From the NCBI GenBank assembly GCA_041489155.1, contig JBGPQP010000014.1, positions 1 to 23,282 on the forward strand: a stretch of DNA of 23,282 nt, written 5' to 3'. The notes below the pieces were generated by a model. The model made no database searches and was not told where the DNA came from. It worked only from the letters and a program-made list of their open reading frames with translations. The DNA is from Candidatus Aenigmatarchaeota archaeon (GTDB taxonomy: Archaea > Aenigmatarchaeota > Aenigmatarchaeia > QMZP01 > QMZT01). The position numbers were made by a program, and so were the translations under genes. Below, in pieces: positions 3,573-19,700 of the stretch. The stretch's first letter is position 1. Every line of letters begins with the position of its first letter.

Positions 3573-5189
3573 TTATTCTTTAAGGAAGCCTTCATACGTC
3601 TTCCTGTAAAGCTCGGAGTTCTTCAGCACTTCGGCGTCGCGCTGATACATGTCGGATTTCATGGTCCTGCCAGTCGTCTTCTCCCAAGCTTCAAAAGAAA
3701 TGCCGTACTTGTTCTGCACGCTGTCCCTGTACCATTCAGGTATGACGTTGAAGGCGCAGAAGGGGATGATTGCTTCCGGCGTGAGGTAATGGATGCAGCA
3801 GCGCTTTACGCGCTCTATGTCATAATTATAGGTGTCCATGAAATGCATCATCCCGATGAACAGTGACTTGCGGTGGAACGCGCCCAGTGAACTGTAATCG
3901 TGTTTCATCAGGGCGTCATAGATTATTTTGCCCAGCGAGAAGCCTTTGGGTGCTTTCGACTTATCTATGAAAGAGTTGAGCTTGAAGAACATCTTGGCGC
4001 CGACGACGTATTTGCTCTTGCCTTTTTGCAGTTCTTCAGCCTGCTCCTCGACGTATTCGAAAAGGCCGCCGATGTCTATGAACCTGGTTATCGGCAGCAT
4101 TTTCCCGTTGTCCTCGAAAACGTAAGTCGCCATGCCACAGGCAAAATGAGTCGACAGCGAGTACTGCGGCTTCTTGACAAGCGATTCGACGAAATCAGTG
4201 ATGACCTTCATTGAGGGAACCGGGTAGAAATCGTCCTTGCTTATCGCGCCGCCAGTCTGCTCCTCTATCTTTTGTATTACGTCTGGAATTGTTATCCTGT
4301 GTTTGTCGCGTTCTTTCCTAGGCATTCGCCCGACGAGGGAGACTGGCTGATAGTTGACGCCGCGGACCACGTCCATGTTCCTGAAGCCGAAGCGCAGGAT
4401 GTCGCCGACTTCGCTGTCATTGACCCCTTTGATTATGGTAGGCACGAGCACAAGGCTGACCTCTGCCTTCCTCGAATTCTCAAGGACCTGCGGGATTTCG
4501 TAGTGATTCTTGGGATTCGTTTGCGGGGTCACGCCGTCGAACGAAAGGTAAACCGTGTTTATGCCGTTTTCCCTCAGCTTCGCCACGAACTCCGGGTCCT
4601 GGGAAAAACGTATGCCGTTGGTGTTGTACTGGACGTGCTCGACGCCTTCCTCCTTTGTCATCTTTATTATGTCAATTATGTCGTTCCTCAGCGAAGGCTC
4701 GCCTCCCGTTATCTGGAGCGCGTTGCCGGGAACCGGTTTTTCATCCCTCAGCAGTTTCACCGCCTTCCTCAGCTCTTCAAGCGACGGCTCGTAAACGTAT
4801 CCCGCCCTCTTGGCGAAGAAAAAGCAGTACCAGCAGTTGAGGTCGCAGCGGTTGGTGACGACGAGGTTCGCAAGCGCTGTGTGGGATTTGTGGAGCGAAC
4901 AGAGGCCGCAATCCTTCGGGCAGACAGGATTCGCTTTCGCCACGTTCGGGTTCTCAACGCCCCTGCCGTCGTAGGCAAAAGTCGAAGCTCTCTTGTACAT
5001 GTCGGCAGAACCCCAGTAAAGCTCCACGACTTCGCCGTGCTCGTCGCATTTCTTCTTTATCCAGATTTTGCCGTCCTCTTCGAATATCGTGGCAGCAATT
5101 ATCTTCAGGCACTCCGGGCATACGGAAGCCGTGACAAGAGGGAGTTTCACGGCTTCCACGCTGCCTTCCTTTTTCTTTTCCTGCGGCAT
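3573..5189 (-). CDS. tes: Tetraether lipid synthase (Tes / GDGT-MAS, MJ0619/Saci_0703 family radical SAM enzyme)
   Basis: N-terminal CPEC...CDEHG metal site, then CPKDCGLC..H, the radical SAM motif CDLNCWYC, GGEP, 'VRGVNYQPVS..GR', 'RITIPD...IEEQT', 'DFYPVP', 'H.ACG', and 'MHFMDTYNYDIERVKRCCIHY.TP..IIPFC'. These are colinear with MJ0619-family Tes as I recall it. SD GGAGTGG lies upstream. Confidence 0.9.
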   Translation of the reverse strand: MPQEKKKEGSVEAVKLPLVTASVCPECLKIIAATIFEEDGKIWIKKKCDEHGEVVELYWGSADMYKRASTFAYDGRGVENPNVAKANPVCPKDCGLCSLHKSHTALANLVVTNRCDLNCWYCFFFAKRAGYVYEPSLEELRKAVKLLRDEKPVPGNALQITGGEPSLRNDIIDIIKMTKEEGVEHVQYNTNGIRFSQDPEFVAKLRENGINTVYLSFDGVTPQTNPKNHYEIPQVLENSRKAEVSLVLVPTIIKGVNDSEVGDILRFGFRNMDVVRGVNYQPVSLVGRMPRKERDKHRITIPDVIQKIEEQTGGAISKDDFYPVPSMKVITDFVESLVKKPQYSLSTHFACGMATYVFEDNGKMLPITRFIDIGGLFEYVEEQAEELQKGKSKYVVGAKMFFKLNSFIDKSKAPKGFSLGKIIYDALMKHDYSSLGAFHRKSLFIGMMHFMDTYNYDIERVKRCCIHYLTPEAIIPFCAFNVIPEWYRDSVQNKYGISFEAWEKTTGRTMKSDMYQRDAEVLKNSELYRKTYEGFLKE

Positions 5190-5256: not shown

Positions 5257-5305
5257 AATAATTAGTATATTGCAGGAATTTATAAAATTAACTAGCGGAT
5301 GCAAA

Positions 5306-5788
5306 ATGACCGATGGCGAGATACGCGAAATAGAGAAGAAGATTTATGACACTTTCTCCGAGCTGGCAAAATCCATGGGCTTCTCCCCCATACACGGCAA
5401 CATCATAGCCGCGCTCATTGTCGGTGGCGGCTCGCTGCCCCTCCAGGAAATAGCGAAGAAAACGGGATATTCGATATCGATGGTCTCGCTCAGCATGGAC
5501 CTTCTCGAGATATTAGGAATAGTCAAGAAGGTCAAGAAATCGAGGGACAGGAAGCTGTACATAGAGCTGAGCGGTAACCTGCTCGAGTCGCTGAAAAGGA
5601 TATTCCTCATGCGGGTGAAGAAGGGGATATCGGAGTCGCTTCTCGAGTTCGAGCAGGGGAAGGGAAGACTGCAGAAACTACAGGGGAGAGACAAGGAAGA
5701 CGTGCTGAAGGCGATAGAAACCCTTGAGAATGAGATAAAGAGGCTGGAGAAATACGTTTCGCTTCTTTCAGAGATAAAGCTGCCCTGA
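5306..5788 (+). CDS. GbsR/MarR-family (COG1510-like) winged-helix transcriptional regulator
   Basis: 'SMGFSPIHGNIIAAL...LPLQEIAKKTGYSISMVSLSMDLLEILGIVKKVKKSRDRKLY' is a wHTH, followed by a coiled-coil C-terminus. I prefer the ATG at 5306 over the TTG at 5270. Confidence 0.8.
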   Translation: MTDGEIREIEKKIYDTFSELAKSMGFSPIHGNIIAALIVGGGSLPLQEIAKKTGYSISMVSLSMDLLEILGIVKKVKKSRDRKLYIELSGNLLESLKRIFLMRVKKGISESLLEFEQGKGRLQKLQGRDKEDVLKAIETLENEIKRLEKYVSLLSEIKLP

Positions 5789-5961: not shown

Positions 5962-7215
5962 CTAAATAGCAGGCACACAGTTGCCGTCGGGCGCACCCAT
6001 GCATATTTGGCCTTCGTCGCAGTAGCTGTCCTTGAAGCACCATCTGCAGTCCTTGCCTGAGGACTCGGGGCAGTTATCGTGATTTTCTCCGCGGTCGGGT
6101 TGACATACGCCGTCGCCGCAGCAGTCGTAGCATTTCAAATTCACACATGAACCGCTCTTGCATTCGCTGTCGGACGTGCATGCTTCTCCACACTCCTTGT
6201 TTGCTGGTGGTATTATCTGGCAGTTGCCGTTCCTGTTGATGTAAGAATTGGGGTTGGTGCGGTCGTAGCCGGAAGCACACCTGCACGGGAAGTCGAAGTT
6301 ATTCGGTCTGATATCCCATCCGCTGTCCCATTGGCACCAACCTGAAGGAATCACGAAATAATTGTCAACATCTTTAACTGTCCCGCCCTCGCAATGCGCC
6401 TTCAATTCGTCCTCTGCTTGCGCGGCGTCGAGGCTGTATTTGGCTGACCACTCATCATATTTCCATTCGACCCTTGTCTTGTACCACACAGGACAATAGT
6501 CAAGATTGCATTTGCCCGCAGCGCTGTCGTAGCAGCATAAAATGCCGGGATGGCATGAATAGTCGTTGCATTGAGACTCTTTCCCGTCCCATTGAGAGCA
6601 GGGATGATAAGGGTCTGACGGGTACTTCCAGTCGGTGCCCTCGTCTCTGAGGCCTCTGCATGGCACTGTACCGCTTCCCTTCCAGTAGCATACGCGCAGC
6701 TCGCAGTGCCATTGGTTATTTAGCTCTTCGCAGTTTTCCACAGTTCCGCAACCGGGACCGCCGTTCTGCCAACTGCACGCGGAATCCAGATTGCACGCAT
6801 AAACATTATCGCCGTATTGCTGGTTGCACAGGTCGGGCGGTATTACTATGCCGCCGGGCGGGCACAATGTGTCATCGGTTTTGCCGACTGTCTTGTCGTT
6901 TAGCGAAACCTCCGTGACCTCGTTGGTTTCGGGCTGGCCGTCATAATCGAAGTGGTTAGTTGTCACTTTTATCGTGCACTTGTAAGCAGCCGCCATCGGG
7001 GCGTTGAACTTCAGGGTGTATTGGTTGTTGTTCATAGGAAGGTAAGGCTGCGGCGAGCAGATACCGTAACTTCCCGTGGAACATCCATACCCGCCAAAGC
7101 CGCTGCCGCAGGAAAACGTCAGGTCCACTTTTGGCGGCATGGCGTCTGATGCGGCACTGACACAAAGCATAATACAAGTTGCAAAAAACGCTGAAAACAC
7201 AACGATTTTCTTCAT
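5962..7215 (-). CDS. Secreted Cys-rich protein, paralog 3 (conserved N-module, Cys/Trp-rich variable middle, CGDGxC C-module)
   Basis: Signal peptide MKKIVVFSAFFATCIMLCVSAAS, conserved MNNNQYTLKFNAP..AAYKCTI...NE..EVSLNDK.VG.TDD module, C-terminal CCGDGVCQPDRGENHDNCP. No TM anchor. SD GGAGGAGG. Confidence 0.85.
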   Translation of the reverse strand: MKKIVVFSAFFATCIMLCVSAASDAMPPKVDLTFSCGSGFGGYGCSTGSYGICSPQPYLPMNNNQYTLKFNAPMAAAYKCTIKVTTNHFDYDGQPETNEVTEVSLNDKTVGKTDDTLCPPGGIVIPPDLCNQQYGDNVYACNLDSACSWQNGGPGCGTVENCEELNNQWHCELRVCYWKGSGTVPCRGLRDEGTDWKYPSDPYHPCSQWDGKESQCNDYSCHPGILCCYDSAAGKCNLDYCPVWYKTRVEWKYDEWSAKYSLDAAQAEDELKAHCEGGTVKDVDNYFVIPSGWCQWDSGWDIRPNNFDFPCRCASGYDRTNPNSYINRNGNCQIIPPANKECGEACTSDSECKSGSCVNLKCYDCCGDGVCQPDRGENHDNCPESSGKDCRWCFKDSYCDEGQICMGAPDGNCVPAI

Positions 7216-7261
7216 TTTGCCTCCTCCCCCTTCTTTAAACTAAACGAATATCTCATAAACT

Positions 7262-8611
7262 CTAATAACATTTTATTTTTGACCTGCATCTACCGGAAAC
7301 GCACATTTCGCAATCATCACAGTCGTCGTCATTATCGCAATCCCTGTCGCTGCCGCAGTCCTTCCTGCAATTCGCCCCGGTCTCACCCCTGACTGTCTGG
7401 CACACTCCGTCGCCACAGCAGTTGTAGCATATGTAATTCGTGCAGGTGCCGCTCTGGCACTGGCTGTCGATTGTGCAGGAAGCGCCGCAGGCTTTCAATG
7501 TGCTTCCTCCGCCGCAGTTACCATTATAAACCACTCCGTTGGAGAAGCCGGGGCAGCTTTGCGATGCGCTGTAAACATCACTATTGCATGTGAAACTCTC
7601 AAGGGTTACGGGCATGTTGGTGAATTTCTGCGCCCAAACATTGTGCCACTGTGTTTTGCCTTGGCATTCGTTTCCCAAGCAGTAGGAATTGAACTCAAAG
7701 CTGAGAGGCATCGCTAGGACCAGGCATCTTTCGTCATCACCCTCCTTTTTGATGCAGATCGAATGAGCATCTGAGTTCCATGTTATCTTATACTTTTTAT
7801 TACCTTCCAACGTAGGGCTGTTCCCTCGGGTTATTCCTTCCCCACACCATCCGTCCCTGATGGCACCCTCAGAGCACGGGCAACACGAACATTCCTCGCA
7901 TGTGCCTACACCTGTTTTGACCACGTAATTGTCTATATCTGGGAAATATACAAAACTTACACCTGAATAAACCCTGCTCCTGGTGTTGCTCATGTCAAAA
8001 ATTACGTATCTCACATCCTCTCCCTCGCCGGCCCTGGCATCATTAAGTTCGTCCGGGATTAGGTTTCCTATTTTGAATTCGACAGAGCCGCTTTTGCAGA
8101 ATTTGCTGTCGCTATAGCCGCTGAAACACGTGGGATTCGAAAGGCCTCCCACGTCGCTGGGCACATTGTTTACGCATGGCGGATGCACGCATTCGCTCAC
8201 AGTATTGCAGTAGCTGTCATCAGTCGTGCCTACAACCTTGTCGTTCAGTATGACTTGCGTCTTTTCGTTGGGCTCCGCGACGCTGGGATTATACGGCGGA
8301 GAGCCGCAATTGAAGCTGAAATCGTTTGTGACGGCGGTTATCGTGCATTTGTAATCAGCCGCCCTCGGAGCGTTGAACTTCAGGGTGTACTGGTTGTTGT
8401 TCATATTAAGCCCATATTCGGCCATGCAGTCTTTCTTGTAGCAGCCGCCTGACGGGAAGCCGCTGGCGCACGTGAAAGTCGCGCTGAATGAGGCGTCAGT
8501 AGCAGCGGCCCTTGCTGTATCGGTCTGCATAAAACCAAGCATTATCATTGTTGCGAATAAGCAAACGACAGTGCCCAAGATGGCCATTTTACCTTTCATT
8601 CTATCCTTCAT
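7262..8611 (-). CDS. Secreted Cys-rich protein, paralog 2 (conserved N-module, beta-rich variable domain, CGDGxC C-module)
   Basis: Signal peptide, MNNNQYTLKFNAPRAADYKCTI...NEKTQVILNDKVVGTTDD, C-terminal CCGDGVCQTVRGETGANCRKDC. No TM anchor. The exact start Met is uncertain. Confidence 0.85.
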   Translation of the reverse strand: MKDRMKGKMAILGTVVCLFATMIMLGFMQTDTARAAATDASFSATFTCASGFPSGGCYKKDCMAEYGLNMNNNQYTLKFNAPRAADYKCTITAVTNDFSFNCGSPPYNPSVAEPNEKTQVILNDKVVGTTDDSYCNTVSECVHPPCVNNVPSDVGGLSNPTCFSGYSDSKFCKSGSVEFKIGNLIPDELNDARAGEGEDVRYVIFDMSNTRSRVYSGVSFVYFPDIDNYVVKTGVGTCEECSCCPCSEGAIRDGWCGEGITRGNSPTLEGNKKYKITWNSDAHSICIKKEGDDERCLVLAMPLSFEFNSYCLGNECQGKTQWHNVWAQKFTNMPVTLESFTCNSDVYSASQSCPGFSNGVVYNGNCGGGSTLKACGASCTIDSQCQSGTCTNYICYNCCGDGVCQTVRGETGANCRKDCGSDRDCDNDDDCDDCEMCVSGRCRSKIKCY

Positions 8612-8651
8612 ATTTGCTCTTGTCCGACTACGTTTTTCTCGTGCTTAATTA

Positions 8652-11600
8652 TCATTTCTTCATCCTGTCGAACAGCGACTTTGTCTCCTTCTTCCAGAAG
8701 GAGCTCAGGAATATCCCGAATACCGCTATTATCGCAGCGAGGACTGCGAACACCAGAATCCATGTGTTTATAGGGATAGGTGCAGCACATGCCGTCTTGC
8801 ACGAACCTCCGCAGTCAACTCCCTGCTCGTCGCCGTCTTTCATCATGTTATGGCAGTGGGCCGGTTCCTCTTCGCCCCCGAAGCCTTCATCTGTTATGCC
8901 ATCGCAGTCGTCATCGATGCCGTTGAATATCTCGTTCTGGGCGCCGGGAGCTGCGAACCTGTTGTAGCACGCGCATTTGGTTGAGCCTATGGAATTCCCT
9001 CTGTCCACGTCATCAATCACGCCGTTGCAGTCGTCGTCCTTGCCGTTGCAAGTTTCAGGCAAAGGCATAATGCCTCCGGCGCATTGTCCCCATTTTCCGT
9101 TGACGCACTTTTTGACGCCAGGAGTGCATTCTCCGACGTTGGAGCCGCACTGCATCTCCTCGCCTTCACTGCACCTGCAGTCTATGTCGTCGTCTATAAC
9201 CTGGTTGCAGTCATTGTCAATGCCGTCGCATTTTTCCACGGACGGGTTTCGGCCGTTGTAGCAGCCGCACTGCGTTTCCTCGACTGAGTAGCCGCCGTCC
9301 ACGTCGTCTATCACCCCGTTGCAGTCGTCGTCTTTCATGTTGCACACTTCGTCTGAAGAGCGTTTGCCTCCTGCGCAAGCGCCCCAAACGCCGCCAGTGC
9401 AGGACGCCCTGCCCAGCTCACATTCACCAATTGACGAGCCGCAGGGCTTGGTCTGGCCCTCGAAGCACACGCAAAAAAGACCCTCGTCTATCGTTCCATC
9501 ACAGTCGTCGTCAATCTTGTTGCAGGCTTCATCGCTTTTGGCTTTCCCTCCGTAGCAGCCGCATTTCGTGTCCTCTACTGACTGCATGCCCTTAATATCA
9601 TCAACAATCCCATTGCAGTCGTCATCGACGCCGTTGCATATCTCCAGCTGCTTCTTGTCCGTGGTGTTGCCCATGCCTCCCGAGGTTTCGGTTGAGCATA
9701 TTGTCGTGTTGCCGTTGGCCGCGCAGGTTATCACTCCACCGGCGCAGGCGCCGGTGCCGCATGTCTTGCCTAGCGTTGGCCATTTGTCGTCAACGACGCC
9801 GTTACAGTCGTCGTCTATGCCGTTGCACATCTCGGTGGATGCAGCGACAAGACCCTTGTTATAGCAGCGGCATTTGGTGGCGTCGACAGATTTGCCGCCT
9901 CCCACGTCGTCTATCACGCCGTTACAGTCGTCGTCTATGCCGTTGCAGGTTTCTGCCTTCGGGTCGCTGCTGTTGTAGCAGCCGCATTTCGTAGAAGCGA
10001 TGGAATTGCCGCCGTTCACGTTGTCCGTTATGTTGTCGCAGTTGTTGTCCTTGCCGTCGCACACTTCGGTTGAAGAATCCTTGGCCCCTATGCAGCCGCC
10101 CCACACACCTCCGGAAAGGCACTCCTGCCTTCCCTCTATGCATTCGCCATCATTCGAGCCGCAATATTTCCAGTCTCCAGGCGAGCAGATGCAGCCCTCA
10201 TCAACGCTGTTATCGCAGTCGTTGTCTATGTTGTCGCATGTCTCGTTCTGGGCAAGATTGTTGCTGCCGCCTATGGTTGAGCAGACGACGCCGTTTTTGG
10301 CTGCATTGCACTGCCAGTAGCCGCCCTCACATATGGTGCCTATGCCGCATTCGTTCGTATAATCAGGCCAGTCCCAGCCCAGGGTCTCCAGCCACGGGTC
10401 ATCTATCACCCCGTTGCAGTTGTCATCCTTGGAGTTGCAGCTTTCCGTCAGCTCGCCGGGCTCATGCGCTCCCCCGGCGCAGGCGCAGGTCGAGATGTCG
10501 TAAACGTCATCGATGCCCTCGTGAACGGATTCCTCATCGTTACAGTCGTCGTCTATGCCGTTGCATACTTCTTCTCTTGAAGCCGGCAGGCCCACGCCAT
10601 AGCATCTGCATTTCGTCGCTTCGACTGAAGTGCCTCCTCCGATGTTATCTATTACGCCATCGCAGTCGTCATCGATGCCGTTGCAGAGTTCAGGTTCTTT
10701 GTTTGCAAGGCTGCTGCACTGCGTCTTCGGGTTCTGCCATGCGCCATTAACGCAGCTTATCGTGCCGAAGCCGCATTTCGATATGTCGCTGTAGACATCG
10801 CAGAAATCGAAAAGCGGGGCATTGTAAAAGGTCCACTGGTTATCAACCAGACCGTCGCAGTCGTCGTCAAGGCCATTGCAGACCTCCTGGAAAGGCCCTG
10901 TCTGGTTTTCGCAGTAGTCCCAGAAGCCGTCAGCGCAGGTGGCGTTGCCTGGTTTGCACACGCCTATCGCTGCCGCGGTCGCGGCGCTGCCGTACTTCGT
11001 CTCATAATCATAGCCGTAGAAGCATAGCGTTTTTTCGCCGGGGTTGCATTGCAGCGTGTCTATGCAGAACTCGTTCGACGAGCTGTTCAGCTTCTGCGGA
11101 TATGTCTTGTCGAATACAAGAACCCTGAAGCAGTATTTGTTTTCGGGCTTCAGGTTTTGTATCCTGAGCCTGTTCTCAGAGCCTCCGTAAACCGGAGGGC
11201 CATAAGAGCCGTAATACGTCCCGGGCCCTGTCTTGAAGCCCTCTTGCGTCGAGTTGTAAAGCTCGTAATGATCAAAATCGTTCAACGGCGGATTCTGTGT
11301 CCATATGAGGTCAACATAATTGTCGCCAAGCTTTTCATACCACAAAGAAGGCGGGTATGGTGCATCCGTGTCCACGCAGAATTCCATTGGCTTCTTGGTG
11401 AAAGCAGGATTATCACCATTATCCTTAGCAGCAGCGCAGATGTACATGTGTTCTACCACTTCGTATTCCGGGCCAGAAGCGAAATAAGCGTTATAATCGG
11501 TCGGGCAGGTGGCCGGAAGCCCGGCCTTGTTGAGCCATACCTTTACCCTTTCGCTATACTCCGTGCACCCTGTTTCACCGTCGACACACTTTATGAGGGC

Positions 11601-12065
11601 ATTCACGATTTTCTGAATGTACTGGGTGCAGCCGGCGGCGGGGTCGGAGGGAAGAGCATCACTGATGCTGCTCTGCAGCGTAACGTTTGGAGGCGTCGTG
11701 TCTGCCGTGCATACGCCGTTCTGATTCTGCTGGTCGCAGTACATCCATGGGATGCCGCAATACCACTGCGTGCCTGGTAATTTGGTATAATCGTAGCAGC
11801 AGGGATCTCCCACCTTCCTGCCGCAGAGTATCTCGCATTCGATGGTGACCGACTTGAGGCCGTGGCTCTCGAAGCCCTTGAGGGTGATGGTGTTGTCCGT
11901 CGCCTTTAATTCCACTTCGCCTAGTATCGGCGTATTGGCGGGATCGAAGACTTTCGTCACGTCCTCGCATATCTCGCACACGTCCGCCCTGCCAATAGCA
12001 GGCACCACCAACGCAAAAACTGCCATCAAAGCACATGCAACCAAAAACGCAAATTTTTTATTCAT
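8652..12065 (-). CDS. Membrane-anchored Cys/Asp-rich repeat surface protein (~1137 aa): partial jelly-roll N-terminus, Ig-like and FN3-like domains, 14 putative metal-binding repeats, C-terminal TM
   Basis: SD GGAGGTG precedes the ATG at 12065, then signal peptide MNKKFAFLVACALMAVFALVVPAIGRA. FN3-like segment 'VDLIWT...FDHYELY...IQNLKPENKYCFRVLVFD' at ~11056-11360. ExCNGxDDDCNGxxD repeats (PF11617-like), a DCGGSC module, a TM helix and a basic tail. Confidence 0.9.
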   Translation of the reverse strand: MNKKFAFLVACALMAVFALVVPAIGRADVCEICEDVTKVFDPANTPILGEVELKATDNTITLKGFESHGLKSVTIECEILCGRKVGDPCCYDYTKLPGTQWYCGIPWMYCDQQNQNGVCTADTTPPNVTLQSSISDALPSDPAAGCTQYIQKIVNALIKCVDGETGCTEYSERVKVWLNKAGLPATCPTDYNAYFASGPEYEVVEHMYICAAAKDNGDNPAFTKKPMEFCVDTDAPYPPSLWYEKLGDNYVDLIWTQNPPLNDFDHYELYNSTQEGFKTGPGTYYGSYGPPVYGGSENRLRIQNLKPENKYCFRVLVFDKTYPQKLNSSSNEFCIDTLQCNPGEKTLCFYGYDYETKYGSAATAAAIGVCKPGNATCADGFWDYCENQTGPFQEVCNGLDDDCDGLVDNQWTFYNAPLFDFCDVYSDISKCGFGTISCVNGAWQNPKTQCSSLANKEPELCNGIDDDCDGVIDNIGGGTSVEATKCRCYGVGLPASREEVCNGIDDDCNDEESVHEGIDDVYDISTCACAGGAHEPGELTESCNSKDDNCNGVIDDPWLETLGWDWPDYTNECGIGTICEGGYWQCNAAKNGVVCSTIGGSNNLAQNETCDNIDNDCDNSVDEGCICSPGDWKYCGSNDGECIEGRQECLSGGVWGGCIGAKDSSTEVCDGKDNNCDNITDNVNGGNSIASTKCGCYNSSDPKAETCNGIDDDCNGVIDDVGGGKSVDATKCRCYNKGLVAASTEMCNGIDDDCNGVVDDKWPTLGKTCGTGACAGGVITCAANGNTTICSTETSGGMGNTTDKKQLEICNGVDDDCNGIVDDIKGMQSVEDTKCGCYGGKAKSDEACNKIDDDCDGTIDEGLFCVCFEGQTKPCGSSIGECELGRASCTGGVWGACAGGKRSSDEVCNMKDDDCNGVIDDVDGGYSVEETQCGCYNGRNPSVEKCDGIDNDCNQVIDDDIDCRCSEGEEMQCGSNVGECTPGVKKCVNGKWGQCAGGIMPLPETCNGKDDDCNGVIDDVDRGNSIGSTKCACYNRFAAPGAQNEIFNGIDDDCDGITDEGFGGEEEPAHCHNMMKDGDEQGVDCGGSCKTACAAPIPINTWILVFAVLAAIIAVFGIFLSSFWKKETKSLFDRMKK
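8889..10886 (-). repeat. Coding repeat array: 14 x ExC(N/D)xxD(D/N)(D/N)C(N/D)xxxD with interspersed Cys spacer modules
   Basis: Counted from the translation, EVCNGLDDDCDGLVD through EIFNGIDDDCDGITD. Confidence 0.9.
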
Positions 12066-12111
12066 CTCCAACACCTCCGAAAAACAATACCATAAACATC
12101 ATAATATCACA

Positions 12112-13290
12112 TCATGCGCAGTCTTCCGGGCAGGTCCATTGGTTTTCACCATACTCTGTATCGCAAGTGCCGTCGCCGCAATCCGTGCAGTAGTTATACC
12201 CTCCCGCCTTGAGGCATCGCAAGTCGGCGCAGCAGTCACCAAGGCTTATGCTGCATCTCTCGCCTATTTCCTTGCATTCGCCATCGCCGTCACCGTCGCC
12301 GCCGCAGTCAAAGACCTCGACCGTTCCCGCAGGCGCGAAAAAATATGCTCCGTGGAGCCAGCTGCAACCATCGCCAGGGCCGCAGTATTTGCCAAGGTTG
12401 AGCCCGCTGTAATATGCAAGCCTGTCGGCAGGAGTCGAAAGGGTTATGGTGCTGCCTGAAGTTTGATCTGAAAATGTCACAGTCTTACGGTCGGAACTCA
12501 CTTCCACTTTGTATGTGTGGTCCACTATTGCTGGGATCTCTTTTATGTTGCTTAAAAGTGTGCACCAGTCATAACATCCCTGGGGAACGCCGCAATCCAT
12601 GCAATAGCCTGCCCTCGGCTCGATGTTTCTTTCGCCTTCCCAGTTCCTGTACCTTATCTGTATGTAGTTCCTGTTTGTGGAACCGCCAACGCCCAGCACC
12701 TGGGCCTTGTCTTTCCCTTCGTCGAGGTCAAGCAGGGCCTGTTTAACCTTGAAGCATATCTTGCCGCTGAAAGCGTGCTGATTGCCGCCGCGCAGCACAT
12801 TGGGATCTCCGCCCATGTTGGTGGTGCACATGGGACAGACGCAGGGGCATCCAGAGCATATGCCGGCACACTGCGGCAGGCACGGGTTCTCACACACGCC
12901 ACCCGGCGGGCAGGCCGTGTCAAGCGTCCTTCCGACCGCCTTGTCGTTTAGCGCGATTTCAGTGACTTCGTTTGTCTCTTGCGGACCTCCGGCAGGGTAG
13001 TCGAAATGGTTCGCTACGGCTGTTATAGTGCATTTATAGGCAGCCACTTTCGGGGCGTTGAAGTTGAAGGTGTATTGGTTGTAGTTCATGGGAAGGTAAG
13101 GCTGGAAGGTCGAGCCACATATGCCGAGCGTTTCGCTCGAGCAGGAGAAGCCGCTGCTGCATGACCAGGTTTTGCTCACGTTTAACGGCGAGCTGCCCTG
13201 GGCAGACGCGGAAGGGAAGGCTGATATAAGCATGAATGCAAACGCGGCGAAAACTGCGGCGAAAAATAAGGACAAAATCTTGTTGTGCAT
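12112..13290 (-). CDS. Secreted Cys-rich protein, paralog 1 (conserved N-module, beta-rich variable domain, CGDGxC C-module)
   Basis: ATG at 13290, 2 nt after the pilin stop, with a GGAGG SD inside the pilin 3' end. Signal peptide MHNKILSLFFAAVFAAFAFMLISAFPSASA, then QPYLPMNYNQYTFNFNAPKVAAYKCTI...NEVTEIALNDKAVGRTLD. C-terminal CGDGTCDTEYGENQWTCPEDC. Confidence 0.85.
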   Translation of the reverse strand: MHNKILSLFFAAVFAAFAFMLISAFPSASAQGSSPLNVSKTWSCSSGFSCSSETLGICGSTFQPYLPMNYNQYTFNFNAPKVAAYKCTITAVANHFDYPAGGPQETNEVTEIALNDKAVGRTLDTACPPGGVCENPCLPQCAGICSGCPCVCPMCTTNMGGDPNVLRGGNQHAFSGKICFKVKQALLDLDEGKDKAQVLGVGGSTNRNYIQIRYRNWEGERNIEPRAGYCMDCGVPQGCYDWCTLLSNIKEIPAIVDHTYKVEVSSDRKTVTFSDQTSGSTITLSTPADRLAYYSGLNLGKYCGPGDGCSWLHGAYFFAPAGTVEVFDCGGDGDGDGECKEIGERCSISLGDCCADLRCLKAGGYNYCTDCGDGTCDTEYGENQWTCPEDCA

Positions 13291-13292
13291 TT

Positions 13293-13709
13293 TTACAGTC
13301 CCTCCACGTCGTATACAGACACCATGTCCTGTGCGTTCCTGCATTCTACTGACTGGACTACCATCGATTTGATGCCTGTTTCCTGTCTTACGGGGAAAAG
13401 CCCTATGTCATTCGCTTCAACTTTCTTCTTCAGGAAATCCTTGTTGGTTTTGGTCTCCTGCTCGGAAGAGATCAGCACAACGAAGCCTGTGAGGGGAACG
13501 GAACCCGTGTTGTAAACCACAAGGTTTATGTTGCCGCTTTCGGCGTTGTAGTAGGCCTTCTGCAGGATTATCTGGGCCTTCGAGCAGACCTGGAATTCCT
13601 CGCGCTCTGAATACGAGAACTGGGAAATCCATGCGTAGAAAATGCCTGAAACCACGAGAGAAAAGGCTATCAGCATTATGGTTGCTATCAGCGGTGAAAT
13701 GCCCCTCAT
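13293..13709 (-). CDS. Archaeal type IV pilin-like protein (class III signal peptide)
   Basis: MRG|ISPLIATIMLIAFSLVVSGIFYAW is a canonical archaeal prepilin N-terminus. It is followed by a short beta domain with 'VYNTGSVPL' and two Cys. Confidence 0.9.
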   Translation of the reverse strand: MRGISPLIATIMLIAFSLVVSGIFYAWISQFSYSEREEFQVCSKAQIILQKAYYNAESGNINLVVYNTGSVPLTGFVVLISSEQETKTNKDFLKKKVEANDIGLFPVRQETGIKSMVVQSVECRNAQDMVSVYDVEGL

Positions 13710-13734: not shown

Positions 13735-16700
13735 TCAAGGCTTGACGAACACCAGCACTATGCCGACCGCGACTATCACCACTACCAGCGCGATGAAAAC
13801 TATCATCCATGTGCCGCTCTGGATTGGCTGCGTCGGACCGGCGCACGGGTTCGGGCAGGAGCCGCCGCAGTCGATGCCTTCCTCTTTGCCGTCTTGCATG
13901 CCGTTCTCGCAGCTGCCCACCTCCGCTCCTCCTAGGCAGCCCTCGTCTATCCTTCCGTCGCAGTTGTTATCCTTTTCGTCGCACACCTCGGTCGCAGGCT
14001 GGCCGCCGTTGCAGACGAGCGTCTTGCCGTCTTCCGAGCAGATGAAAACGCCAGCGCATATGCCGTCGCCGCAGGTCTGGCCTACGTTCGCCCAGTCTTC
14101 ATCCGTCGCTTCGTCACAGTCGTCGTCAATCTTGTTGCAGCTTTCGACGCCGGGGAGCGCGTCGTTGTAGCATGCGCATCTGGCCGCCTCGACTGAAGCA
14201 CCATCTCTGACGTTATCGATTACGCCATCACAGTCGTCGTCAATCATGTTGCAGGTCTCAGGCTTCGCGCCTTTCGCGTACGCGTTGTCGTAACAGCCGC
14301 ATTTTGTTTCATCGACCGAGTCCTTGCCGCCGATGTCGTCGACTATGCCGTTGCAGTCGTTGTCCACGCCATCGCAGGTTTCTGTTGTCTTGTCGGCGCC
14401 GCCGTAACAGCCGCATCCGCCTGCAGGCAGGTCGTCTATCACGTCGTTGCAGTTGTTGTCCTTGCGGTCGCATGTTTCAGGCACAGGCATTATGCCTCCT
14501 ATGCAGTTGCTCCATTTCTTGTCGGCGCAGGTCTGGATGCCTTCCCTGCATTCGCCCACATCGGCACTGCACTTCCTCTGCTCGCCGTCGACATCGCAGA
14601 TGCAGTTCTCGTCTATCACGCCGTTGCAGTCATTGTCTATGTTGTCTCCGCATTCCTCGTCGATTGCCTTGTCCTGCGAGCCGCCCTTTTCAGTCGAGCA
14701 AACCGCAGTTTCCTTGTTCTGGGAGCATTCGTAGACGCCGCCTGAGCAGGCGCCCATGCCGCATGCGCCTCCGAGTGTGGGCCAGTCCTCGTCTATCAGG
14801 CCATTGCAGTCGTTGTCGATACCGTCGCATATCTCCTGCAGCTCGCCTGACTTGTGGGTGCCGTTGTAGCATGCACACGCCGCCGTGTTGGCGACGTTGT
14901 CTATCCTGCCATCACAGTCGTCATCGATGCCGTTGCAGAATTCAGGCTTCGCCGCTGCGTTGCCTGCGAAACCGCCTGAGCAGAAGCATTTGCCTTCAAG
15001 CCCGTCATCTATAAGGCCGTTGCAGTCGTCATCAATATTATTGCATATCTCGCCCGACGCCTTCTTCGTACTTATCATCACGGCTAGCTGGTTCATGTTG
15101 TTCGCGTTCACTTCCATGTCAATGGAGCAGCCGCAGTCCGTCAGCCCGTCATCTATAAGGCCGTTGCAGTCGTCATCGATGCCGTTGCATGTCTCCTCTC
15201 CTCTCGGTACGCCGTTGTAGCACCTGCAGAACTTGTTGGATATGTCGCCCCAGACGTTGTCTATCTTGCCGTCGCAGTCGTCGTCAAGAGCGTTGCAGGT
15301 TTCGTTCATCCTTAGGTCGCTGCCGGCGATGCCCTCGTTTGACGTGGTGCTGCAGACAATGCCTGTGCCGTCTTTCGAGCAGACAAACATACCTCCGATG
15401 CATCTGCTGTTCAGCGGGCTGCACGAAGCGCCAAGGAACTCGAACTTGTTGACCGAGCTGCCGCCCTGCTGCCACGGGTCGTCTATGACGCCGCTGCAGT
15501 CGTTGTCAATATCATCGCACTTCTCGACTGATATTGCAGTGGCCCACGTGTTGTTGTAGGGGCCGAATACCGTCCCTGCGCAGGCGCATTTCTCCAGGTT
15601 CTCGTCTATCAGGCCGTTGCAGTTGTCATCGATACCGTTGCATGCGGTCTCGGTTTCGTTCGTTTTCTGTGTTATGTTCACGATCTGGTCGAAGCAACCG
15701 CAGTGCGTCGCTTCGATAGAAGCGCCTCCCTTGACGTCGTCAACGACGCCGTTGCAGTCGTCATCGATGCCGTTGCAGACCTCGATGCTAGGTTTGCCGC
15801 CGTTGGAACAGGCGCAGGTCTCGGGAACTGCGATGTCATCTATCTCTGCGTTGCAGTCATCATCCTTCATGTTGCATAGCTCGGTCTTCGGCATCATCGC
15901 AGTGCAATTGTTCCATTCGGTTCCTTCGCAGGCCTGTGTGCCGAAGGTGCATTCGCTCACCGAGCTTACCGGAAAGTCTGTTTTCTGGCAAATTCTTACC
16001 GAGTCGCAAAGGCCTAGGACAGTCGCCTTCTTTTCGCTGTCCTCTGACGTGATGTTTTCAAGCATGGAGGTGCATTTCTCATAAATGTCGACTTCCTCCT
16101 CGGCTATGGTCTCGTTTATGGTCTCCTCCTGGCCAAGACTTGAGTAAGGCTGGTAATAGCGCATCTTCTCCCTTATCGCCGCCTGGTCGAAAGCCTGCGA
16201 GTAGACTGCGAGCTCGTCTATCAGCGAATACGCCGTCTTCGAAGTCCCTTCGCCGCCTATGTAGACGTCGAGGCCTATGTCATTCGCTTCCCACGTGACG
16301 CTCTTGGTTGCCTTCTGGACGCCGTCGACGTAAAGCGAGATGCCTTTAAGGTTGTCCCACGTCGCCGCTATGTGATGCCACTCGAGATTAATGATGCCGG
16401 CATTAATGGTGTAGTTCTTGCCGGTCTTGTCAAAGACCTGGAATACCGTGCCGTTCTCGCTCAGGTAAAGGCTGAACTGGTTACCTCCGTTGAAGTCTTT
16501 TGAATAGAAAAGATAATGTTCTTCGGTTAGGTCGGTAGGCTTGACCCACATCATTATCGTGCCGCGGTTCTTGTTGAAGTTCTCGGACGTCGGGTAGAGC
16601 AGTTTGTCCACGCCGTCTATGTAAGCTCCTTGTACGGGGACGGTTTCTTCCATAAGGTCGCGGGTATCTTCAACAAAGGTCACCCCGTAAACGTTTTTGG

Positions 16701-19700
16701 GGTACATGTTGCCCTCGCATACCGTGGAGTTATCGAAGTGGCAGAGCAGGAACAAGCCTCTCGCATAATCCAGGCCCGTGACTTCGCTCAGGCTGACGGG
16801 TATGTACGTCGCCATAGGACTGCCATAATACAGGTAGAATTTCTTTTCCTGGTTGGGAGCGAGATCGGTCTTGAACCAGACCGTCGTCTTGGAGCGCTTG
16901 AAGGGCGTAGAATTGCTCCACGCCAGGTTCTTCTCTTCTCCTGCCGGGATTATCCTCAGGTCGCCGCCGTCGCTTCTCAGCTTGCCATTCTCTATGAGGA
17001 AGCCAGAGCCTATTGAAACATTAATCGGGTAGCCTTTAAGGTCAACGTTGTCATTGTTCTTGACGGTTATTATTCTCCTATATTTCACGTTCTCAGGCGC
17101 TTCCGCCCATGTAATCATCTTCTTCAGCTCGTCCACCACGTCAGCGCAGACGTCGTCCAACTGCTGTCTGCTCTTGTAGTATATGCCGCTCTCGTAGCCG
17201 CAGAGCTTTATCACCCCTTCGGGTGAACAGTAGCAGTCCTCGTCTATCGAGTAGTCGCAGTCGTTGTCGCGCAAGTCGCAGGTCTCGTCGTGCTTGAGCT
17301 TTATCGCCTTGCCGCTGAACGTCTCGTCGGGGTTGACGGTCGTGTTGCACACCGCCTCGTCGCCGTGGACGTTACACACGTAGTTGCCGCCGGCGCAGGC
17401 GCCGTAACCGCAGGTCTTGCCCACGTTCGGGAAGCTCTCGTCAGCTAGGCCATTGCAATCGTTGTCCATGCCGTCGCATTTTTCCTTGACGTTCCATTTG
17501 ATTTCGACGGACTCGTTCGGGCTTCTCCTCGCGCATGCGCAGTCCTTTGCTCCGTCGTCTATGACGCCGTTGCAGTCCGAGTCTATGCCGTCGCACGACG
17601 CATCGCCGCCGGCCTTGAGCCTGTGTATAATATCTGCATCGGTCAGCAGGGCGCAGCCGCAGGTCTCTATTGCCGGCACGTCGTCAACCCTGCCGTTGCA
17701 GTTGTCATCGATGCCGTTGCAGGCCTCTTCTGAAGGCGAGGAAGCGGTGCAGCTGCAGGTGTCGCTGAGGACCGTGAACTTCTTTTGTTCGAACCTGCAC
17801 GTGCTCGTGTTCTGGTAGTAATGGCTGCATTCGAGGTACGTGAGGTTCTCCCTTAATACGTAATTGTCATCGACGATGCTGATGTATTGGATGCGTCTTA
17901 TGTTCATGCATTGTCTTACCTTCTCGGTGCACGTGTTTAGAGTAACATTGCCCGAGACCGTCACCGGCGTTTCGGCCAGGTTGCATGATGAGGAGTTGTA
18001 AAGCTTCTTGCACCATTCGTAAGGACTGCCGTCCTTCATGCACTGCTGCACGGCGGCATCGCAGGTGTTTATCCACACCTTGCCCTGCGCGTCGTCAACG
18101 ACGCCGTTGCAGTCGTCGTCGATGCTATTGCATTTTTCAGGAGACGCAGGAGCTCCCATGAAGCAGCCGCACTGGGTGACCTGGTATGGATTCTTCTTGC
18201 CGCCGCTTACTATTATCTCGTTTATCATCAGGTCAAAGCTCATGACGTCGTCAACGATGCCATCGCAGTCGTCGTCTATGCCGTTGCATGCCTCGGGAGA
18301 CGGGTAAACGGGAAGGTCGTTGCTCGTCTCGTATTCCCATCGCAGGTACGTGTTGCTCAGATTCTTGCACGTCCTCAGGCCGGGCTTGCAGGCGCCCTTG
18401 CCTTTCGTTCCCGGATATGTGGCATCATCATAATAATACTGCTTTTCTCCTTCCCTCAGGCAGTCAACGACGCTGAACCCGTAATTCCGGATTTTGTTAT
18501 ACTGGATCGAGGTGTTGCCGGAGGTCATGTTGTAGGTCGCCGTAAGAACGAGCGTGTATTTCTTTCTCTCGCCGGGAACCCTGAAGCCGAAGTCATCGAA
18601 AAGGTTGAAGGGGATGGTGTAGTTTTTGTCCAGGATCTTGTCGGCGTTTTCGCCGAGTTTTGCAAGTATGTTCCAGCCGTCAATCTCGTTGCCTGTATAA
18701 TTGAGGTCGATCTTTGTAAGAGGTTCGGTACCCTTGAGCTTCAGCTTCACTCTCTTCAACTCCCAGAGCGGCCCTACCGTAGGGAAGGGCAGTGCGAAGG
18801 TCGAGGAGGCGCTCTGGTTGAGCTCGTTTATGCAGTCCAGCCTGCAGCCCCATCCGGGCCTGCAGTAGCAGCACTTGCCTGTCCCAGTTTTTATGTCGCA
18901 GAACTGGTTGGTGAAGTTCGACTGGTACAAAACGCCTTCCGTGTAATCCAGCGTGGCGCTGGATTTTACCAGGACGCAGAGCTTGTTTCCGCCCCTTGTA
19001 CTGTCATCAAAAGGCGGCAGGAAGTTTGCTATGTAAGAATAGCCGTAGCCCTTGTAGTCGTTTAGGGTAATTTTATCGTCACCTGTTGCGCCATCCGTGC
19101 TGACGCTGAACTTCATCAGGCAGCATCTCATCTCGTAGGCTCCCTTAATATAGCTGTATCTGTTGTCTGCAACGCAGTCGGTTTCCCATGAAGCCCAGTC
19201 ATCCGCCTTCTTGCACTCGTAAAGGCCACCCACCTTTTTTCTCTCGCCAAGCCATTCCCTCACATACAAATCCCTTTGGGTGTCGATGCTTTTCCGGTCG
19301 AAATTAACGTTGCTGTTGCCGGATTTAATGAAGCCTGTCTTCTTCGTCGGATCGCCTCCGACGTTGTCCCACTGGTCGGGGTTGAAGCCGAGGTGGGTTA
19401 TCCAGCCGTACTTGTTAGTCTTGATGCCCAGATATTCGTCATTACCGCAGGCCTCCCTAAGCGAACACCAAACCTCATCGTTGTCGCAGAGGTTATCTGA
19501 ACGGACATGATTCGTTGAAAAATAATAAAAGTTCCTTACCTCCTTCAGGCCTTGGTTCGCGAGCACGCTGGCCTTGCCCGTGATATGCAGACCGTTCGCG
19601 CCGGGCGCCTCGCTGCTCATGAAGGCTCCGTTGCCGAGGATGTCAAGGAGCGACGCGTCTTTCGCCTGCTCGCTCTCGACTCTCAGGCCGACAGGATTTT

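Follow-up and report, generated by a model that had tools for sequence, protein, structure and literature searches.

A cluster of surface-protein genes in an aenigmatarchaeal genome

The 23,282-nucleotide stretch of DNA analyzed here (the window) lies on contig C14 of a Candidatus Aenigmatarchaeota archaeon, whose assembled genome of 1.13 Mb is about 90% complete. Six minus-strand genes, spaced 2 to 46 nucleotides apart, follow one another in it and encode, in order, a giant protein with MopE-type repeats and a laminin-G domain, a pilin-like protein of 138 residues, the protein head3, a stalk, and the proteins head2 and head1. The heads are secreted proteins that share an N-terminal cysteine-rich module (the head module), while the stalk is a membrane-anchored protein with a short three-cysteine stretch at its N-terminal tip (the stalk segment). 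Our reading, which is favored but tentative, is that this region forms the core of a conserved six-gene surface cluster in which an autonomous attachment module would couple varied cargo to stalk-type surface proteins. The products are best read as a surface complex, so far undescribed, of an archaeon of the DPANN type.

The open reading frames (ORFs) of the heads and the stalk span positions 5962-7215, 7262-8611, 8652-12074, and 12112-13344 of the minus strand. The stalk probably starts at the ATG at 12065, which is preceded by GGAGGTG, and head3 at 13290; within the window, GGAGG-like boxes precede the stalk and head1. The features are collected in Table 1.

Table 1. Genes, domains, and tracts of the surface cluster, in window coordinates (TM, transmembrane segment)
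Feature	Positions	Strand	Remarks
Giant surface protein, 2443 residues	13735-21066	minus	First gene of the cluster; signal-like N-terminus, MopE-type Cys/Asp repeats, Laminin_G_3, C-terminal TM
Archaeal type IV pilin-like protein, 138 residues	13293-13709	minus	Class III signal peptide MRGISPLIATIMLIAF
head3, secreted type-B head	12112-13290	minus	Upstream head
head3 N-module	12898-13179	minus	Five conserved Cys
119-nucleotide tract	12902-13020	minus	Perfect match to the module of the C8 paralog that carries GH5; coordinates derived from alignment
Stalk, ~1137 residues	8652-12065	minus	Signal peptide, N-terminal segment, Cys knot, Ig-like region, Fn3-like domain, ~13 MopE-type repeats, TM, short basic tail
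Stalk N-terminal segment, residues 31-80	11835-11984	minus	CxxC...SHG...C; three invariant Cys (alignment columns C6, C9, C53)
Six-Cys knot	11694-11834	minus	Directly after the stalk segment; from the stalk N-domain alignment
Stalk C-terminal TM, residues ~1094-1129	8688-8795	minus	Followed by KKETKSLFDRMKK
head2, secreted type-C head	7262-8611	minus	40 nucleotides past the stalk stop codon
head2 N-module	8207-8488	minus	From profile and alignment
head1, secreted type-A head	5962-7215	minus	GGAGGAGG ahead of the ATG
head1 N-module	6850-7128	minus	From profile and alignment
head1 C-terminal Cys-rich module (CGDGVC...GE...C)	6061-6198	minus	Common to all heads; head2 7337-7501, head3 12118-12264

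The head module and its family

The original prediction had described a module of ~90 residues in the three paralogous heads, and such a module is indeed present in all of them (E values of 1e-20 to 1e-34), with the motif recovered by the paralog alignment as it had been written. The head1 copy (6850-7128) is 68% identical to that of head3 (12898-13173; E = 1.1e-33) and 60% identical to that of head2 (8207-8482; E = 9.6e-20), which places these matches far beyond chance. Contigs C8 and C16 of this genome each carry a further copy. The cysteine counts agree with the earlier description as well, with five in the head1 and head3 modules, one extra in the head2 module, and three in the stalk segment, whose sequence (residues 31-80) is as it had been quoted. 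The heads carry no transmembrane (TM) anchor, their sole hydrophobic segment being N-terminal. A claim that did not survive is that the similarity of the heads ends abruptly after the module. All three share a C-terminal Cys-rich module, K.CG..C..D..C...C..CGDG.C....GE....C, which is 58% identical between head1 and head2 over 50 residues (E = 2.6e-16), and the full-length head2 and head3 align over 375 columns with 27% identity (E = 5e-20). The middle domain distinguishes three head types, designated A (head1), B (head3), and C (head2). The parity of total cysteines in whole proteins is mixed, and a Pfam scan of the three heads returned no family match.

A short unit of the head C-termini, CGDG.C...E...CP.DC, is also seen in MopE proteins, including the giant protein of genome G336, where it adjoins the membrane, and a 900-residue protein of G302. 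This unit matched no Pfam model.

When 1.84 billion representative proteins were searched exhaustively with phmmer, 31 clusters were returned at E ≤ 1e-3, two of which were dropped as bacterial repeat proteins that match over a short part of the query only. The family alignment has 30 rows, with a complete module in 28, and in all 28 the start (W.C.SG) and the end (D..CP) are unchanged. Five cysteine positions are conserved in the module, compared with three in the stalk segment; counted in the cut window of the alignment, the complete modules hold five cysteines in 17 cases, seven in 8, nine in 2, and eight in 1. The additional cysteines come mostly in pairs, and three distant members (P0023, P0033, and P0036) have CCF(D/G) in place of the NHF(D) motif.

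The module starts no more than ~60 residues from the N-terminus, directly after the signal peptide, in 24 of the 28 complete cases, and is internal in the remaining four, twice after GH5 and twice after a stalk. The parts found downstream of it are diverse: RGL11_C (3) and FG-GAP (4), which denote PL11-type lyases, GH5 (2), PKD (4), Hint (2), MopE (2 fusions), and a phosphatase. One further module-bearing protein has 926 residues with GH5-like stretches. The same borders thus stand ahead of very different downstream parts, which argues for an autonomous module, and the ~95-residue, five-Cys head module is best read as a complete domain of a small undescribed family rather than as half a domain. 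The family has no match in Pfam, in NCBIfam, or among PDB sequences (none for the head-family profile at E ≤ 10), and the ESM Atlas gave no usable match for the head1 module alone or for the whole of head1. Module-bearing genomes amount to 11 of the 371 of the phylum, and all belong to one order.

Module copies also appear to exchange sequence. Between head3 (12902-13020) and the 718-residue GH5 protein of contig C8 (L007), 119 nucleotides are perfectly identical within DNA that is otherwise ~85% identical; the tract takes up the 3' half of the module and stops near the module border. It records a recent gene conversion between module copies on different contigs and shows that the copies are homogenized within the genome. 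The public protein P0007, in which the N-terminus of head3 is joined to a C8-type middle domain, would have originated across this tract, through recombination or as a chimera of assembly. In contigs of four DNA runs on the region, most joints fall within MopE repeats. Head swapping was considered from two joints linking the head1 and head3 modules and was rejected, these being read as paralog or repeat effects.

Linkage of heads and stalk

A functional link between heads and stalk is well supported by gene order, gene fusions, and co-occurrence. A head gene adjoins the stalk gene or is fused to it in all 10 stalk loci with readable flanks (the window, L006, L028, L029, L030, L031, L052, L053, L054, and L056). 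Two genomes of the same genus, G349 and G350, repeat the order giant, pilin-like, head, stalk, head(s), and in both the stalk stop codon overlaps the ATG of the next head by 4 nucleotides. In another genus, g4, the gene immediately upstream of the stalk is of PL11 type, and this stalk opens with the same CxxC...C segment; the part of the PL11-type gene contained in the contig is 54% identical to the module-bearing protein P0034, and its N-terminus falls off the contig. This neighborhood is also seen at the metagenome loci L052, L053, and L054. The upstream head is of type B in 5 of 5 loci where this position is visible, and the first downstream head is of type C in five loci, type A in two, and another type in one.

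Four single ORFs combine a stalk with a head: the C16 copy P0011 (1253 residues; L006:4778-8539, G000:C16), P0019 (1535 residues), and ORFs in G351 (1760 residues; L029:4462-9744) and L056 (1985 residues; L056:7911-13865). In P0011, P0019, and G351, the junction consists of the stalk TM, KK..KSLFER with a basic loop, a second hydrophobic segment, and then the module. This arrangement is that of a TM hairpin, so the fused stalk and head ectodomains would both face outward. In relatives, a stop codon that overlaps the following ATG occupies the position of this junction. An A-x-A-like site (TAEA/QG) follows the second hydrophobic segment in G351, and the head of this fusion may therefore be cut off. 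In G300, one ORF contains two modules and then an 80-residue form of the stalk segment, located 418 residues after the second module (L028). Two ORFs of this genome (L028:1581-5651 and L041:7400-10429) are run-on ORFs in which successive heads are joined via TM hairpins (..FAWKFLIRKNLTYLYELFKMNAGK..); each next signal-like segment opens with an internal Met, and masked stretches make the gene limits uncertain.

The stalk-segment profile matches 7 of the 91 genomes of the order, all of them among the 11 that bear modules and none among the other 80. Counted by genus, the co-occurrence is 3 of 5 versus 0 of 40 (Fisher p = 7e-4), a value that overstates the evidence because related genomes are not independent. 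The co-occurrence that the original prediction had called for therefore holds in one direction, since the segment is confined to module genomes, but not in the other, since 4 of the 11 module genomes (G352, G337, G347, and G302) lack a segment match. G337 does have a stalk, which is cut by the contig end, and G352 is fragmented. MopE repeats (PF11617) are found in as many as 75 of the 91 genomes, and it is therefore not the repeats that track the module; none of 14 control genomes has them. With repeats in 75 genomes and modules in 11, a general docking of heads on MopE repeats was discarded as unspecific. Within the order, these repeats are often found in proteins of 1000 to 9700 residues.

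The stalk itself matches PF11617 (E = 1.4e-46; 156.8 bits, cut-off 27) and continues for 13 residues past its TM. Its closest named relative, P0039, comes from a metagenome-assembled genome labelled Candidatus Aenigmatarchaeota and has an N-terminus equal to that of G350, of the same genus. The six-Cys knot is present in 5 of 8 aligned stalk N-domains, being absent from G351 and both G300 copies, and it is also missing from two g4 stalks. The stalk segment measures 45-50 residues in G351 and genus g4, and the 80-residue form of G300 has ~33 extra N-terminal residues with two strand-like stretches that have no counterpart in the genus of the window. Word-index searches for other contexts of the stalk N-domain yielded 3 and 2 matches, and the narrow segment alignment used as a query found five metagenome loci.

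The nature of the cargo bears on the main rival reading, according to which the module is a new carbohydrate-binding module (CBM) that aims enzymes or lectin-like heads at a glycan of the host or of the cell's own surface, the stalk being merely a co-regulated neighbor. Such a role would suit the attachment of the module to GH5 (2 of 30), to PL11-type lyases (RGL11_C in 3, FG-GAP in 4), and to the 926-residue protein with GH5-like stretches, as well as its beta-rich look, its conserved aromatic residues, its NHFD motif, and the existence of stand-alone heads without a stalk. However, the module resembles neither of the two CBM families tested, and CBMs are usually not fixed in position, whereas this module sits directly after the signal peptide in 24 of 28 complete cases. 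A glycan-directed role also fails to account for the restriction of the stalk segment to module-bearing genomes, for the four fusions, and for the stop codons that overlap the next start. We consider it unlikely, though deserving of attention.

The giant protein, the pilin-like protein, and neighboring genes

The two upstream genes are conserved parts of the cluster. The giant protein matches PF11617 (E = 1.1e-57; 192.3 bits, cut-off 27) and Laminin_G_3 (E = 4.2e-20) in Pfam, and it ends with its TM segment. Its homologs occupy the same cluster position in G349, G350, and G351. About 18 MopE-type repeats can be counted in it (13735-21066). In genus g4, giant homologs of ~2500 residues are directly followed by genes for module::glycosidase and module::PL11 proteins (L035 and L037). 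The 138-residue protein reaches 21.7 bits against TIGR02537 (cut-off 20) and thereby qualifies as having an archaeal pilin N-terminus; its match to an UpsA-like model (E = 1.4e-9) falls under the cut-off of that model. In G349, a 138-residue ORF likewise lies between the giant gene and the first head.

Another alternative is that the module serves head-to-head oligomerization, or attachment to a different component, for instance the pilin-like or giant protein or the MopE repeats, with no contact at the stalk tip. The presence of several heads per cluster, the constant type B of the upstream head (5 of 5 loci), and the conservation of the pilin-like and giant genes are consistent with it, as are the heads that adjoin MopE proteins without a segment and the membrane-proximal position of the fused modules. 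As a specific partner, however, the MopE repeats fail, since they are found in 75 of 91 genomes and the module in 11. This alternative appears distinctly improbable.

Just downstream of the cluster, the window encodes a radical SAM protein that carries a zinc ribbon of the HMPTM type, and a small ORF of MarR-like/winged-helix character (3573-5189 and 5270-5788). A matching pair of radical SAM gene and small ORF follows the heads in G337 (L034) and G349, and G351 has the radical SAM gene.

The split jelly-roll model

The original prediction had gone further and proposed that the module and the stalk segment are the two halves of one CBM6/CBM35-like jelly roll, completed between chains and locked by disulfides, so that heads would compete for a single tip. 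The part of this model that ties variable heads functionally to the stalk stands, on the evidence of gene order, fusions, co-occurrence, and gene conversion. The split fold itself is unsupported rather than refuted.

Several features would accord with it. It draws on the same linkage of module and segment as the attachment reading; the conserved cysteines are odd in number in both pieces (5 and 3); and the stalk segment is very short in G351 and g4 (45-50 residues). The G300 form adds ~33 N-terminal residues with two strand-like stretches, and the ~6 strand-like stretches of the module together with the 3-4 of the segment, as judged by eye, would fit a jelly roll. AlphaFold2 folded neither piece confidently alone, a weak indication given the 30 and 6 aligned sequences. 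For head1, modeled from the 30-row alignment, the mean predicted local distance difference test (pLDDT) score was 55; the module scored 54-79 with three strands, and values around 80 were confined to the C-terminal Cys-rich module. Stalk residues 1-345, modeled from six rows, averaged 48, with the segment below 50 and an acceptable result for the Fn3-like part only, and both models are too poor to bear on the completeness of the fold. A Foldseek search of the weak head1 model against the PDB gave no match at E ≤ 1e-3.

Against these features stand the profile searches. The proposed resemblance to CBM6/CBM35 was reproduced by no profile search: in an hmmscan at E ≤ 10, neither PF03422 nor PF16990 matched the three modules or the stalk segment, and over the six frames of the genome the CBM6/CBM35 models hit C25 (E = 0.4) and C1 (E = 0.007) but nothing on C14. 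The head-family profile, as noted, retrieves no PDB sequence, and an hhalign comparison of the stalk-segment profile with the head-family profile gave a probability of 0.4%, which indicates that the two are not homologous. Hidden Markov models of module and segment were also applied to every ORF of the window and of 24 loci, 25 sources in total. The fused homologs that the model led one to look for did not emerge, as in no ORF does the segment directly follow the module; the pieces share an ORF in five cases, at distances of 418 (L028) or ~830-1420 residues.

The distribution of the module points the same way. G347, which is 93% complete, has a type-A head among pilin-like genes and no match to the segment profile, and in G302 and G335/G336 (contigs C18/C11) the heads follow MopE proteins with other N-termini and without a stalk segment. 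Persistence of the module without the segment in these genomes is not expected of a half domain unable to fold alone. The genome of the window, moreover, has five modules against two segments. That the two pieces are halves of one fold has no positive support, and we regard the split jelly roll as highly improbable.

A candidate attachment system

The attachment reading attributes to the head module the role of a common coupling device for exchangeable extracellular cargo, which would comprise Cys-rich domains of three types, GH5, PL11 lyase, Hint, PKD, and phosphatase. Its most likely contact would be the conserved 45-residue, three-Cys segment at the N-terminal tip of the stalk, in a logic like that of dockerin and cohesin with unrelated modules. 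The analysis demonstrates the module family with its borders and contexts, the operon, the fusions, the co-occurrence, and the gene conversion; physical binding, the contact site, and any disulfide lock are inferred. Both pieces have an odd count of conserved cysteines (5 and 3), which is compatible with one unpaired cysteine in each.

A more specific version takes the five-Cys module and the three-Cys segment as a dedicated docking pair, possibly beta-strand-complemented and joined by one inter-chain disulfide, that would let DPANN-type archaea mount exchangeable GH5 and PL11 enzymes and adhesin heads, much as in a cellulosome, on a membrane-anchored, repeat-built stalk in contact with the host. 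In this detailed form, the proposal is rather improbable.

Several observations weigh against the attachment reading in general. Some heads are encoded away from any stalk, namely the GH5::head protein of C8, the head of G352:C48, and the head of G347, and the heads of G302 and G335/G336 (C18/C11) come after MopE proteins devoid of the segment. The fused modules start ~20-40 residues past the second hydrophobic segment, which would place them at the membrane and ~1000 residues from the stalk tip, unless they were freed by signal peptidase. Co-occurrence may just reflect the inheritance of one operon, and the attachment of the module to GH5 and PL11 would fit a carbohydrate-binding module as well. 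A weak single-sequence match to the segment (E = 5.8e-4) was obtained in the head-less genome G237. The AlphaFold2 models of head1 and stalk are both poor (mean pLDDT of 55 and 48).

Comparison with known systems

Cohesin-dockerin pairs assemble cellulosomes and amylosomes, and an archaeal pair is reported from Archaeoglobus fulgidus. The cluster resembles them in that one small non-catalytic module is found on diverse secreted cargo, including GH5 and a polysaccharide lyase, in that the genes lie beside an anchored scaffold, and in that module copies are homogenized within a genome. The Pfam matches obtained for the heads, the stalk, and the 30 family members include neither dockerin nor cohesin. 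Unlike dockerin, the module here is Cys-rich, ~95 residues long, and mostly N-terminal, and the scaffold offers a single candidate receptor segment instead of repeated cohesins, with a binding that is for now putative.

Donor-strand complementation, as in chaperone-usher pili, completes an incomplete beta-fold with a strand of another chain, and this is the kind of mechanism that the split jelly-roll model invoked. In contrast to it, the module shows no sign of an incomplete fold and persists without its proposed partner. A CBM6 or CBM35 jelly roll comprises about 120-130 residues. The module shares with these families (PF03422 and PF16990) a beta-rich look and, in some members, the connection to glycoside hydrolase or lyase domains, but neither the modules nor the stalk segment match their profiles. 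MopE-type repeats (PF11617), described as a 'putative metal-binding motif', are matched by both the stalk and the giant protein, metal binding being only putative; they differ here in forming long arrays in C-terminally anchored archaeal proteins.

The SPEARE proteins of Nanohaloarchaeota are very long and mostly extracytoplasmic; they combine laminin-G with adhesion domains and have a TM close to the C-terminus and a cytoplasmic restriction-enzyme region (PMC6642349). The 2443-residue giant protein of the window has this long-ectodomain layout with laminin-G and a C-terminal TM, but it and the stalk end a few to ~15 residues past the TM, without the cytoplasmic restriction-enzyme region. Both are also built of MopE-type repeats, and no separate head proteins are described for SPEARE proteins. 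A literature search on Aenigmarchaeota surface and cysteine-rich proteins, DPANN MopE, and PF11617 found nothing on the cluster, supplements lying outside its scope.

Significance

DPANN archaea depend on contact with host cells, and to our knowledge the proteins that make this contact are mostly unknown. The cluster contributes two unannotated and narrowly distributed modules, a candidate docking pair that would mount varied enzymes and binding domains on a stalk. Should the binding prove not to be true, the module would still be a candidate for a new family of carbohydrate-binding or attachment domains. If the binding is true, the pair would represent a new modular surface-display system in archaea and a small Cys-stabilized docking pair usable in protein engineering.

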